From: Eledone cirrhosa
Taxonomy: Eukaryota
Assembly: GCA_964016885.1 (NCBI GenBank)
Contig: OZ024753.1
Location: forward strand, 13,640,001 to 13,704,000
DNA length: 64,000 nt
Reading direction: 5' to 3'
Shown: in pieces, positions 6,551 to 55,360 of the stretch
Layout: every line of letters begins with the position of its first letter
Numbering within the stretch: the stretch's first letter is position 1
Translations under genes and position numbers: made by a program
The notes under the pieces: model-generated
The model's input: only the letters and a program-made list of their open reading frames with translations
Told to the model about the DNA's origin: nothing
Database searches by the model: none

Positions 6551-6589
6551 GCTGACAGTCTGTTTCACGCTGTTGGCGATCATCAGAGC
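6551..6589 (-). ncRNA. Minimal type I hammerhead ribozyme motif
   Basis: Minus strand gct-CTGATGA-t-cgc-caaca-gcg-t-GAAA-cag-a-ctg-TC-agc; GUC cleavage triplet; self-complementary stem III. Confidence 0.7.
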
Positions 6590-6977
6590 AACGTACTCCC
6601 CGCCTTTGCCGAGAACTACAGAAGCTGGATTCTTATAGAATTACAGTAATAATTAGGAGCTGATTATACAGAGTGATTGCCGGTCCAGCAAAATTAGGTA
6701 TTAGGATTCATCATCATCATCATCATCATCATCATTTTACGTCCGCTTTTCCCTGCTTGCAAGGGTGGGACGGGTCCTATTCAGCAGGATCTCTCCATTT
6801 GTTACTTATCTATCTCAATATCTATTTATCTACATCTCTTTGCCTATGGCTATATCATGTTTATATATATGTGTGTGCATGTGTATATTTGTGTATGTAT
6901 GTATGTGTGTGTGTATATATATATATATATATATATATATAAGAATATTTTTGAAACGGCAAGTGGGTTTGAAATTA

Positions 6978-7200
6978 TTAGAAATGTAAGCTATCGCCGT
7001 ATTTTGACTAAAGAAATTAAAGAAATTATTTAGCCTGATAGTGGGGTTAAGAACCCTCGGAGAAATGGAAAAAGATGAGTATTGACGTACGTCAATACAC
7101 ATCTTTTTCCATTTCTCCGAGGGTTCTTAACCCCACTATCAGGCTAAATAATTTCTTTAATTTCTTTAGTCAAAATACGGCGATAGCTTACATTTCTAAT
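6978..7200. repeat. Near-perfect ~220-bp palindrome between (TA)n tracts
   Basis: Arms of ~110 bp centred on GACGTACGTC (~7085-7094); mirrored ORFs in the track. Confidence 0.95.
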
Positions 7201-7660
7201 ATATATATATATATATATATATATATATATATATATATATATATATATATATATATGTACAAGAAGGTAGTACAGCATAATCGAAGCTCTGGTTGTGGGC
7301 AAGCTAACGAATGCTGTCGGGAAGTGAAGTCAAAAGCACTCAATAAGGAACTTTACCTTAGAGTTATAACATTACGTTTAGACAGCTATGCAAATTGAAG
7401 CCAGCGACTGAAAAGCGAGCCGCTAGGACCAGAACAACGAAAAAAACCGACTCGGGGATATATATATATATATATATATATATAGATATATGTGTGTATA
7501 ATTAAAGAAATGACAATGTAAAAACACTATCATATTAGTATCACGCTTAGGAGGAAACACACACTCATAATCTATCTAAAGAATGGGAAATCATAAAGAA
7601 TGACTGATGTATTGATAAAATACTGTATTTTACTTCCTAGAAAATATTTTCCTATATATA

Positions 7661-7995
7661 TGGAGGCACATGGCTTAGTGGTTAGAGCATTGGCCTTGCA
7701 ATCGAAAGGTTGTGAGTTCAATTCTCAGACCGGGTGATGTTTCCTTGAGCAAGACACTTTATTTCACATTGCTCCAGTTTACTCAGCTGTAGAAATGAGA
7801 TGATAGGACTGGGGTCCATATCATTCCACTGCAAAGTGGTCGTGGAGGTGCCACGGCAAAAAATCACCCAGCACTCACTGTAAATGAGGTTGGTGTTAGG
7901 AAGGGCATCCAGCTGTAGAAATCAAGCCAGAATCAGTTCCCGTCCCACCTTTGCAAGCAGGGAAAAAGCGGACGTAAAATGATGATGATGATGAT
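7661..7995 (+). mobile_element. tRNA-SINE family B (CORE-like domain, RTE-type 3' end)
   Basis: A box TGGCTTAGTGG, B box GAGTTCAATTC, CCTTGAGCAAGACACTT core, GGAAGGGCATCCAGC, (GAT)n tail; copies at 10435-10845(-), 19874-19983(+, truncated), 44511-44815(+). Confidence 0.85.
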
Positions 7996-8189
7996 ATCTC
8001 CACACAATACCTGCTCTTGAATAAGAACAGTCAACTATATGGTTCTTCTCCTGTTGCTATTATAATCACTTTTTCTCCACAATAAAAGAACACATACAAC
8101 CTGAGGACCCTTTTTGCTCGATAGAGTTGGTAACTCAGAGATCAGAGAGTCGCTCCAGGTAGAACCACAACTTCTCCGAATTGAGAGAT

Positions 8190-8610
8190 CATCATCATCA
8201 TCATCATCATCATCTTCGTTTAACGTCCATCTTCCACGCTAGCATGGGTTAGACGGGAGTTGTGCCACTTGAGGCAAGGTTGTCCGGGTGACCGTGTCTC
8301 GCTCATATAGGACTATCTGGCAGGCTTTCTACGGCTGGATGCCCTTCCTAACACCAACCACATTTACAGTGTAGTACTGGGAACTTTTTACCCTGTTACC
8401 TACACGGCCACATTACAGCGTGGACTGTGTTTTATTTATTTATTTATTTTTTTATCATGACACCTACATGATCTCGATCTCATTATCTCATTTATTTGGA
8501 CTGGATGTTGTGGTACCAACTTTACAGAGAGAGGGTGGTGTTGGTGGGAGGATAGGGTAGCGGTAGTGGATTGGGGTGTATATTTGGTTAGGTGCCTACT
8601 GACTGTAGGT
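8190..8610 (-). mobile_element. RTE family 2 3' UTR fragment
   Basis: Matches 41818-42200 and 35575-36170; (CAT)n on + strand. Confidence 0.8.
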
Positions 8611-9104
8611 TCCATCCATCATTGCTATGATACTGCACACGTGGTTAGAATGTCTAAGGGAAGAATCGCTGGACAGATTTTTTTTACAGGCAAAAATCAA
8701 CCAGCAGGAGACCCAGAGGTAGACCCTGAGCAAGATGGTTGGATAACATCCATGAGCTTGGCTGGTTTCACTTGGGGATCTAGCTGGATCAGTTGGAGAT
8801 GGTTTCACCTGAAAGAACCCACTGGAAGAAGTGTTTGAGGGCTCTGCCCCTATGACCCTCCCATGAATAAGTAGATCTTGTGTTTGTATGTTACAAATAC
8901 CATCTTAATAACGATTTTTATGTTTGGCACAAGGCCAGCAATTTATGTAGAGTGGAAAATTGATTATAAATAAAGTACCAGTACATTACTGGTACTTTAT
9001 TTTATTGATCCTGAAATGATGAAAGGTAAAGTTGACCTCAGTGGGATTTGAACTCCGACCGTAGAAAGCCATATCAAATACCACAAAGCATTTTACCTAT
9101 ACCT

Positions 9105-52609: not shown

Positions 52610-54219
52610 TATATATAAACACACACACACACATATATAAACACACACACATATATAAACACACACACATATATAAACACACAGACATATGTAAACACAC
52701 AGACATATGTAAACACACAGACATATGTAAACACACAGACATATGTAAACACACAGACATATGTAAACACAGACATATGTAAACACAGACATATGTAAAC
52801 ACAGACATATGTAAACACAGACATATGTAAACATAGACATATGTAAACACAGACATATGTAAACACAGACATATGTAAACACAGACATATGTAAACACAG
52901 ACATATGTAAACACAGACATATGTAAACACAGACATATGTAAACACACAGGCATATGTAAACACACAGGCATATGTAAACACACAGGCATATGTAAACAC
53001 ACAGGCATATGTAAACACACAGGCATATGTAAACACACAGGCATATGTAAACACACAGGCATATGTAAACACACAGGCATATGTAAACACACAGGCATAT
53101 GTAAACACACAGGCATATGTAAACACACAGGCATATGTAAACACACAGGCATATGTAAACACACAGGCATATGTAAACACACAGGCATATGTAAACACAC
53201 AGGCATATGTAAACACACAGGCATATGTAAACACACAGGCATATGTAAACACACAGGCATATGTAAACACACAGGCATATGTAAACACACAGGCATATGT
53301 AAACACACAGGCATATGTAAACACACAGGCATATGTAAACACACAGGCATATGTAAACACACAGGCATATGTAAACACACAGGCATATGTAAACACACAG
53401 GCATATGTAAACACACAGGCATATGTAAACACACAGGCATATGTAAACACACAGGCATATGTAAACACACAGGCATATGTAAACACACAGGCATATGTAA
53501 ACACACAGGCATATGTAAACACACAGGCATATGTAAACACACAGGCATATGTAAACACACAGGCATATGTAAACACACAGGCATATGTAAACACACAGGC
53601 ATATGTAAACACACAGGCATATGTAAACACACAGGCATATGTAAACACACAGGCATATGTAAACACACAGACATATGTAAACACACAGACATATGTAAAC
53701 ACACAGACATATGTAAACACACAGACATATGTAAACACACAGACATATGTAAACACACAGACATATGTAAACACACAGACATATGTAAACACACAGACAT
53801 ATGTAAACACACAGACATATGTAAACACACAGACATATGTAAACACACAGACATATGTAAACACACAGACATATGTAAACACACAGACATATGTAAACAC
53901 ACAGACATATGTAAACACACAGACATATGTAAACACACAGACATATGTAAACACACAGACATATGTAAACACACAGACATATGTAAACACACAGACATAT
54001 GTAAACACACAGACATATGTAAACACACAGACATATGTAAACACACAGACATATGTAAACACACAGACATATGTAAACACACAGACATATGTAAACACAA
54101 ACACATATGTAAACACAAACACATATGTAAACACAAACACATATGTAAACACAAACACATATGTAAACACAAACACATATGTAAACACAAACACATATGT
54201 AAACACAAACACATATAAA
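52610..54219. repeat. 16/18-bp minisatellite GTAAACACACAGRCATAT in homogeneous blocks
   Basis: Blocks of GAC(18), GAC(16), GGC(18), GAC(18), AAAC(18). Confidence 0.97.
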
Positions 54220-54478
54220 CAACTTGAACCATTAAGATCTTGTTCCTGGATATGTCACTATTTATGAAACAAACTTTGTATTTTATCTGATGAGAACGTA
54301 CCAAAGTTTTGGTACCCTTGAAATATATATAATAGAATAAATATGGTTTTATAAATATAGTTTCCATTTATTAATATCATTGATATTATACTCCAGAAAG
54401 CTTGTGGAGTGCTTTGAATCAGTTATAAATATATATATTTGTTGAATTACCAACAAATTAAATATCCCTTTGCTTATA
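54220..54478 (+). mobile_element. HH family 1 copy
   Basis: Closely matches 20088-20340, same 3' end CCCTTTGCTTAT. Confidence 0.85.
54279..54339 (+). ncRNA. Type I hammerhead motif (HH family 1)
   Basis: Same fold as 20146-20206. Confidence 0.8.
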
Positions 54479-54512
54479 TATATATATATATATATAGTTT
54501 TAATATAGATGA

Positions 54513-54561
54513 GATTCTACAGGACTAGAACTGTTTCATTCTTGAGAAATCATCAGGAATC
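54513..54561 (-). ncRNA. Complete type I hammerhead motif in a 125-bp palindrome (54496-54620)
   Basis: gattc-CTGATGA-t-ttct-ca-agaa-t-GAAA-cag-ttctagtc-ctg-TA-gaatc; GUA site; damaged mirror copy at 54562-54605. Confidence 0.8.
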
Positions 54562-54986
54562 AGATTCTTGATGATTCCTCAACAGTTCTAGTCCTGTAGA
54601 ATCTCATCTATATTAAAACTTTTATACTCTGCTATGTATTGAGTACCTTACTTACTGTGGTTACCTCCGATTCAACCCGGAATAACTTACCTATATTTAT
54701 TTATATATATATATATATATATATATATATATCAACTAGAAATTGATTGACACACACATATATATATATATATAAAATAAACATATGAAACAAACACAGG
54801 GAATAATTTGTAAAGTGTGTAATCTTTGAGCATATTCTCCAGTGGATATGGCGCATGTCTCTCGGACATGACACCCTTAATTTAATTTTGGATATATATA
54901 TATATATATATATATATATCCAGTGAATTTCCAACCGATAAGGTATGATTTTCATGGGTATGTCTTTATTTATAAAACAAACTTTG

Positions 54987-55051
54987 TATTTTATCTGATG
55001 AAAGCGTACCAATGTTGTCTTGGTTACCCTTGAAATATATATAATAAAATA
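54987..55051 (+). ncRNA. Type I hammerhead motif (HH family 1, copy 3)
   Basis: Stem I tattttat/ataaaata fully Watson-Crick; longer loop II. Confidence 0.75.
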
Positions 55052-55295
55052 AATATGGTTTTATAAATATAGTTTCCATTTATTTAATATCATTGATGTA
55101 TATATATATATATATATATATATATATATATATCCGTCTTTTTTCTTTTTCTTTATCTCCGTCTTTTTCTAATTGTGCTTAACACTATGACTTATTAAAA
55201 CAATATAAACAATTCATTATCCAGACAGCCTCCAAAAGTAATGGTTGTATTTTAAAAGGGTACGTCAAAGCTATTTGTAAAACTGTTATATATTG

Positions 55296-55360
55296 TATTT
55301 TGTCTGATGAAGGCATACCATAATTTAATATGGTATCCCTGAAATATGTATAATGAAATA
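55296..55360 (+). ncRNA. Type I hammerhead motif (HH family 1, diverged copy 4)
   Basis: Stem II ataccata/tatggtat versus gtacca/tggtac (compensatory change); core intact. Confidence 0.78.

Follow-up and report, generated by a model that had tools for sequence, protein, structure and literature searches.

Minimal type I hammerhead ribozymes occur by the thousand in animal genomes, in many families and mostly as solitary motifs that are probably truncated Penelope-like elements (PLEs); some of them pair on opposite strands 100-700 bp apart (PMC4209133). PLE insertions are recognized by 5' truncation, an inverted copy, a one-sided tail of 30-40 nt, and a bias toward (TA)n and other microsatellites (PMC8557442). 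The subject here is the 64,000-nt stretch of contig OZ024753.1 from position 13,640,001 to 13,704,000 ("the window"; coordinates below count from its first letter), in which a preliminary description had noticed 11 hammerhead-like motifs in small non-coding islands. With a probability of roughly two in three, these islands are 5'-truncated 3' ends (solo pseudo-long terminal repeats, pLTRs) of many PLE families, likely inserted into microsatellites by the PLE reverse transcriptase-endonuclease. The hammerhead-stub pattern is already known, and the islands amount to stubs of PLE ends rather than a demonstrated population of RNA replicons; new here is a bulged hairpin common to five unrelated families.

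The mechanism of such insertions is best approached through PAc (Poseidon of Anolis), whose protein in vitro cleaves AT-rich DNA on both strands and extends both. Reverse transcription of PAc starts at two internal RNA sites downstream of the hammerhead, the stretch between them being the genomic tail, and insertion does not need hammerhead cleavage (Frangieh et al. 2024, PMC11167929). Non-LTR retrozymes, by contrast, are defined by tandem units and are derived from pLTRs (PMC7229834, 10.64898/2026.07.22.740005). Cephalopods are not new ground for either component: Naiad PLEs are reported from three Octopus species, Euprymna and Architeuthis (PMC8557442), the giant squid has 235 Hammerhead_1 loci (PMC6962438), and in O. 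vulgaris PLEs make up 6.83% of the genome in 190 families, ribozymes being unmentioned in the main text of that paper (PMC13282606). The preliminary description knew of no account in cephalopods, yet cephalopod PLEs and squid hammerheads are thus in print.

The window shares most with endonuclease-positive (EN+) PLE insertions: type I or minimal hammerheads near the 3' end with long helix II and palindromic loop III, many families per genome, mostly solo, and opposite-strand pairs a few hundred bp apart (PMC4209133, PMC8557442), together with an inverted 5'-truncated copy, a one-sided tail and microsatellite targets (PMC8557442). It differs from the published insertions, so far as the available parts of those papers describe them, in tails of mostly 60 to ~110 nt and in a shared hairpin 5 nt past the short end. 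As in PAc, two internal starts of reverse transcription downstream of the hammerhead would define the tail; cleavage of AT-rich DNA on both strands and a need for RNA 3' of the start are further PAc features. Unlike the window, PAc starts in an AC-rich stem-loop inside its open reading frame (ORF), and the portions of that study available define no family-crossing element; the window target is (TA)n, and its tails have no common reading frame by eye. Retrozymes resemble the islands in being small, AT-rich, ORF-less and PLE-related, with a type I hammerhead and monomers common (PMC7229834, 10.64898/2026.07.22.740005), but head-to-tail hammerhead units are not seen in the window. Naiads share (TA)n targeting, inverted structures and tails; they are described as having an N-terminal GIY-YIG and lacking canonical hammerheads (PMC8557442), so the hammerhead-bearing families do not fit them, whereas families G, H, I and J could. 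Five short window motifs were absent from the available part of the supplement of the same paper, and scans with window patterns of metagenomes, prokaryote genomes and viral contigs gave no matches.

Islands and insertion anatomy

The islands, lettered by family and with the core position C3 of each hammerhead, are as follows.

6473..6705, minus strand: family B island; canonical-type hammerhead (C3 6586) with a GUC cut site at 6554 and with U-U at the foot of stem II; flanked 5' by (ATC)n but 3' by no microsatellite; boundaries drawn by eye
6942..7198, strand unassigned: family J fold-back flanked by (TA)n on both sides; its arms (6979-7198) are 99% alike, with a tail of 37 nt on one side; neither a hammerhead nor the shared hairpin detected
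7257..7457, minus strand: family I stub between (TA)n tracts; bulged hairpin at 7364; no hammerhead detected
19987..20340, plus strand: family A copy with C3 20154 and a palindromic loop III, its long 3' end running into (ATC)n; hairpin at 20257; beside it an inverted partial family A copy at ~19987-20075
22335..22566, minus strand: family K island; degenerate hammerhead with U at position 3 (22522); boundaries by eye
22606..22940, plus strand: family G; fold-back 22606-22712, tail to 22805, hairpin at 22721; no hammerhead detected; a second copy of the terminal segment ends at 22939, with a 228-nt period
23024..23167, minus strand: family C stub; hammerhead (C3 23119) of family A architecture; (TA)n on both sides
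32809..33162, plus strand: family D copy 1, with a minimal hammerhead (C3 32914) and the long 3' end, whose tail is 60 nt; a 35-nt block from its interior is repeated at the 5' end
33207..33477, minus strand: family D copy 2; carries a hammerhead (C3 33403), its 3' end being the short one, at 33207; fold-back with the 5' end joined to ~10 nt of the long end on the plus strand
44842..45194, strand unassigned: family H fold-back; one-sided tail, (TA)n on both sides, hairpin at 45122; no hammerhead detected
50114..50797, minus strand: family E; minimal hammerhead (C3 50222) preceded by ~570 non-coding nt, with the 3' end running into (TATG)n
50798..50930, strand unassigned: family G again, a second insertion left as a fold-back remnant; hairpin at 50847 on the minus strand, long 3' end as at 22805
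54216..54475, plus strand: family A copy with C3 54287 and a hairpin at 54390; its long 3' end runs into (TA)n
54497..54692, strand unassigned: family F fold-back; hammerhead arm on the minus strand with C3 54556, GUA cut at 54518 and short end 54497; plus arm with damaged hammerhead, ~72-nt tail and hairpin at 54626
54920..55098, plus strand: family A copy between (TA)n tracts; C3 54995, the 3' end short and without a tail
55134..55492, plus strand: divergent family A copy (78% identity with that at 20154); C3 is at 55304, the 3' end is long, and a hairpin lies at 55408

Together they occupy 4,545 of the 64,000 nt (7.1%, boundaries by eye), a share to be set beside the 6.83% of PLEs in O. vulgaris (PMC13282606). 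Nine of the 11 hammerhead islands measure 179-359 nt, one 144 nt and one 684 nt; their GC content is 0.26-0.41, their longest ATG frames are of 14-76 aa, and Pfam gave no match of note. Five islands without a detectable hammerhead (G twice, H, I and J) are built in the same way, so the hammerhead is not the defining trait of the population.

The 3' end of the islands is fixed and lies at a microsatellite, and the 5' end is variable. Six families (A, D, F, G, H and J) show two alternative 3' ends. The family A copy at 54995 ends short, ~90 nt before the long ends of the copies at 20154, 54287 and 55304; the D, F, G, H and J fold-backs bear the extension on only one arm; and the long end of family G recurs at the same base in its independent second insertion (50930). 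An inverted truncated neighbour copy is found with A at 19987, D copy 2, F, G (twice), H and J, and the one-sided tails range from 37 to ~110 nt, most of them 60 to ~110 nt. The earlier impression that the motifs often lie in fold-backs was too generous, since only three or four of the 11 do. In families A, C, D, E and F the cut site lies 21-154 nt upstream of the short end, so nearly any stub includes the hammerhead; in G, H, I and J a hammerhead was not detected. The 5' starts of family A lie 71-78 nt before C3 in three copies and 170 nt before it in the divergent one. Both arms of the family F fold-back (54561-54600) start at the first bases of hammerhead stem I, and the damaged hammerhead copy on its plus arm lacks half of stem II; other turning points are seen in reads as well. 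The duplicated 35-nt block had raised the idea of family D as a 152-nt circle, which was abandoned because the block is internal and is followed by different sequence at each place.

Microsatellites accompany most of the motifs. (TA)n lies within 350 nt on both sides of seven of the 11 (null 9.9%), and a TA, TATG, ATC or AGAT tract within 250 nt on the 3' side of 10 of the 11 (null 23%), or of six of the seven families (binomial p 0.0008), for tract classes that were picked after looking at the sequence. The exception is 6586, which has no microsatellite tract for 386 nt on its 3' side. The association is real but not universal: of the proposal that nearly all motifs sit in 150-350-nt islands bounded by (TA)n or similar tracts, the microsatellite link stands, whereas 6586 lacks the 3' tract and 50222 lies in the 684-nt island. 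Several PLE-type stubs are stacked in single TA-rich stretches (54216-55781 and 22335-23167), which suggests repeated insertion into the same microsatellite.

The shared bulged hairpin

At the start of the tail lies a hairpin of the pattern ACTY, inner stem, 2-nt bulge beginning with T, then RAGTRC. Its eight copies (7364 and 50847 on the minus strand, 20257, 22721, 45122, 54390, 54626 and 55408) belong to families A (three), F, G (two), H and I. The outer pattern was first spotted by eye and its own enrichment is therefore circular; the inner stem was absent from that pattern, and it forms 3-6 pairs at exactly a 2-nt bulge in all eight island copies, against at most two pairs at bulges of 0, 1, 3 or 4 and against 68 of 1,201 outer matches in shuffled sequence (5.7%). 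The full descriptor finds eight hairpins in the window as compared with a mean of 0.1 and a maximum of 1 in 200 shuffles. The inner pairs vary by family yet stay paired (CAG/TTG, TGC/GTA, TACT/AGTA, TGC/GCA, TAAGG/CCTTA), and the outer stem of one G copy has a C-A mismatch. The five variant rows listed inside the family A hairpin in reads fall in the loop or bulge or keep the pair, and family F read depth in the second organism peaks over the hairpin. Single hairpins fold no better than shuffles, the sample is of five families, and a MAFFT alignment put the hairpins out of register.

At four short ends (A, F and G twice) the identity between short and long copies stops 5 nt before the hairpin; in family H it stops 3 nt before, with two bases shared with the TA tract, and the same ambiguity could shift the F and G ends 1-3 nt further from the hairpin. 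A stop 5 nt ahead of the hairpin would suit all five short 3' ends that allow comparison. No shared hairpin is present in the D and J tails. Three matches to a first, loose hairpin pattern that are borne by short interspersed elements (SINEs; 17014, 38462 and 47692) lie outside the final length range and have no inner stem by eye, and outer-motif matches at 10009, 31367 and 54618 (overlapping 54626) also lack it; all six were set aside.

The shared hairpin is a candidate for the signal by which the start of reverse transcription is placed. We lean slightly toward the view that a microsatellite-targeting PLE clade uses a conserved RNA element as a docking site setting this start 5 nt upstream; judged from sequence, the docking element would consist of an ACTY/RAGT stem of 4 bp, a 3' bulge of 2 nt, and an upper stem that is variable and covaries. 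If so, no earlier cis signal for a PLE reverse transcriptase would cross family lines in this way, and any hairpin-bearing RNA, including ORF-less passengers such as a 228-nt family G unit, could then enter (TA)n sites. How PLE reverse transcriptases, the sisters of telomerase, choose an internal start has been located in PAc just to a 172-nt region, as far as the accessible account goes (PMC11167929). A short element at a fixed 5-nt offset in unrelated families makes this choice directly testable, and the hairpin is a handle for finding non-autonomous PLE passengers. By eye it was not present at 20 look-up places in the PMC8557442 supplement. In the literature, with subscription papers, Repbase and Dfam outside coverage, no description of a conserved tail hairpin was found and no paper on octopus PLE hammerheads.

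Hammerhead motifs

A hammerhead-like motif is present at each of the 11 places first cited. A plain core search of the window gives 15 matches, 10 of which are these sites; the eleventh (22522) has U in place of C3, and the five further core-like matches (3089, 19572, 21504, 21994 and 52083) were dropped because they failed the structure test. A strict type I descriptor (core CTGANGA, closed stem II, GAAA, UH, and stem I of at least 4 bp), composed with the sites already in view, passes seven of the 11 sites and finds zero extra sites in the window. In shuffled sequence its means are 0.03 and 0.01 per window with a maximum of 1, and seven was reached in none of 100 shuffles per block size. The shuffled control that had been proposed as a check is thereby answered within the window, with seven strict motifs against at most one in any of 200 shuffles.

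Of the 11 sites first designated type I hammerheads, the four outside the strict seven are weaker: a relaxed core descriptor that admits U at position 3 adds 22522, and the other three fail. Of these three, 6586 has a proximal stem I of 3 bp; 54287 has a stem II mismatch private to this copy, the pairing G being found at that position in 551 of 580 and 1089 of 1206 reads of X9; and 54556 has a stem II of 3 bp above a U-U pair, without a stable fold. Whole-motif folding energy is unremarkable (z -1.9 to +0.5 for seven motifs folded). Rfam, the other check proposed, gave no support: there is no match at gathering score in the window, the best 150 of 424 matches in the whole-window E-value list are nearly all microRNA models on TA repeats and hairpins, and four local scans at islands found no hammerhead, twister or other ribozyme. 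A twister in the hammerhead-less families, considered as a substitute, is left unsupported by these local scans.

The seven sequence types are unrelated as first described, alignment between families never exceeding 24 nt, and they fall into about three architectures. A and C have 3 bp, a C-C mismatch, a long helix II and palindromic loop III; B, F and K have U-U at the helix II base; D and E have the bulge before helix II that is typical of minimal hammerheads. The traits of the minimal class (an intact core, 4-8 bp in helix I, a helix III that is short or palindromic, and frequently a bulge preceding helix II) are found in A, C, D and E; K, with U3, and B and F, with longer helix III, lie outside it. 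Differences among the family A copies in stems I and II preserve pairing, and none of the 40 variant rows listed (of 245) in the read comparison of families A and F falls in the catalytic core.

Copies in reads and contigs

Two raw restriction-site associated DNA (RAD) runs and two contig sets were compared with 54205-54700 (496 nt, families A and F only). Matching reads number 32,863 of 12.47 M and 36,066 of 12.79 M, and matching contigs 17,286 of 16.3 M and 6,467 of 17.6 M, so that these two families have thousands of copies in reads. Family F is abundant under two organism labels, and family A is almost absent from the second. Among the 15 joints listed (of 119), 10 connect the inverted arm of F with the tail arm, at places that differ and under both labels, five change strand, and none is a go-back joint of the kind made by a tandem or circle. 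The variable F joints listed fit fresh two-armed insertions rather than a copied hairpin master or tandem array, and joints that vary between copies are what is expected of fresh truncated insertions. Behind the F tail lie four of the 24 loose-end rows listed (983 in all), running into (CA)n/(TA)n. Family A depth drops steadily 5' of the hammerhead (X9: 1,755, 1,150, 530, 128), a slope that edge effects and divergence confound. Elsewhere, one read joint connects an end of family A with a family F tail in inverted orientation.

The density of one motif per 6 kb given in the preliminary description is a figure for the window only, in which four motifs lie within 1.1 kb and two form an inverted pair. 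As a genome-wide value it is not supported by RAD depth, which per million letters gives about one hammerhead of family A and two of family F (1,847 and 3,532 over 1,839 M letters), far less than in the window; since the RAD data are biased and filtered, neither density is a genome estimate.

Origin of the islands

By analogy with the in vitro system of PAc (PMC11167929), a PLE protein would nick both strands of an AT-rich target and reverse transcription would begin inside the RNA, a near start giving the short end and a far start the end with the tail, with the shared hairpin perhaps serving as the binding site that sets the near start. Both products would usually terminate after 10-350 nt and leave stubs, and the joining of two opposite-strand products would yield a fold-back with a tail on one arm. 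We propose that the hammerhead is kept because it adjoins the start site, not through self-replication of each stub. Solitary minimal hammerheads are reported without cleavage in vitro (PMC4209133), and most of the window copies are thus probably inert. The hammerhead population would then be what PLE activity is expected to leave behind, and its main lesson is that such stubs escape repeat annotation and Rfam.

The PLE connection suggested at the outset is well supported by insertion anatomy, with microsatellite or AT-rich targets, inverted neighbours in fold-backs, one-sided tails, and a hammerhead just upstream of the 3' end. Several observations nevertheless weigh against truncated PLE ends. 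No PLE reverse transcriptase or GIY-YIG remnant was found in the 136 of 438 frames (of at least 38 aa) scanned, including all 66 near islands, and no island is thus tied to a coding element; family E has ~570 nt without an ORF upstream of its hammerhead; the 228-nt period of family G could be a whole ORF-less unit; the three clustered 5' starts of family A may mark a defined 5' end; most tails exceed the published 30-40 nt; the family A depth slope is open to the confounding already described; and PLE abundance is compared with Octopus, which the host is not shown to be. With the exception of the last three, these same points, and the one hairpin common to families with different hammerheads or none, speak for some or most families being ORF-less non-autonomous PLE derivatives, dispersed and SINE-like, whose hairpin recruits the PLE protein in trans for integration by the same mechanism. 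Non-autonomous Chlamys elements (PMC8557442) and vertebrate retrozymes that arose from pLTRs, many of them monomeric (10.64898/2026.07.22.740005), are precedents. We consider such derivatives rather unlikely: the divergent family A copy reaches 170 nt upstream of C3 and the depth slopes without a step, the G junction lies exactly at the long end of the independent insertion so that the G repeat can be two insertions, and many long, recent PLE families of Octopus could account for the stubs (31 recently active families in O. vulgaris, with 336 near-full-length copies averaging ~5.4 kb; PMC13282606).

That the islands are monomers of non-LTR retrozymes, with tandem hammerhead units transcribed and self-cleaving to small circular RNAs, is improbable. 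Sizes of 144-359 nt and GC of 0.26-0.49 would fit, B and F have the fuller helix III and the U-U at the helix II base of axolotl HHR_Amex2 (PMC7229834), and the palindromic loop III of A and C suits cleavage as a dimer; but the window has no head-to-tail unit with two hammerheads, the joints listed include no go-back joint, and the tail ends enter a microsatellite, not another unit. The same two absences leave the original proposal of many independent non-autonomous RNA replicons without support. Very improbable indeed is a chance origin of the motifs in AT-rich repetitive DNA, to which the weak individual folds, the lack of an Rfam match and the failure of four of the 11 sites under the strict descriptor might point. 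The shuffles, the preserved pairing in family A and the catalytic core free of listed variants refute it for A, C, D and E, and argue against it for B, F and K singly on weaker evidence. Truncated PLE ends remain the preferred origin of the islands.

Other features of the window

The window is repeat-rich and of animal type, with 35% masked as simple or tandem repeat. A 442-nt island at 19408-19849 follows a (TA)n tract and adjoins a family A insertion, and a TA-flanked island of 267 nt at 55515-55781 has neither hammerhead nor hairpin; to the eye the 51-aa frame at 55627-55779 resembled a PLE, but a search gave no relative and it was dropped. Long ORFs of long interspersed elements (LINEs), with RVT_1 followed by a PHD finger, lie at 23448-26465 and 42209-43951, the first open for ~790 aa, and broken LINE copies with C-terminal C2H2 zinc fingers at 1347-4802 and 30249-31505. 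A mariner-type transposase remnant (HTH_48) occupies 51873-52588, and homogeneous minisatellite arrays extend over 11499-16744 (32 bp units), 52623-54216 (18 bp) and 61975-63276 (31 bp).

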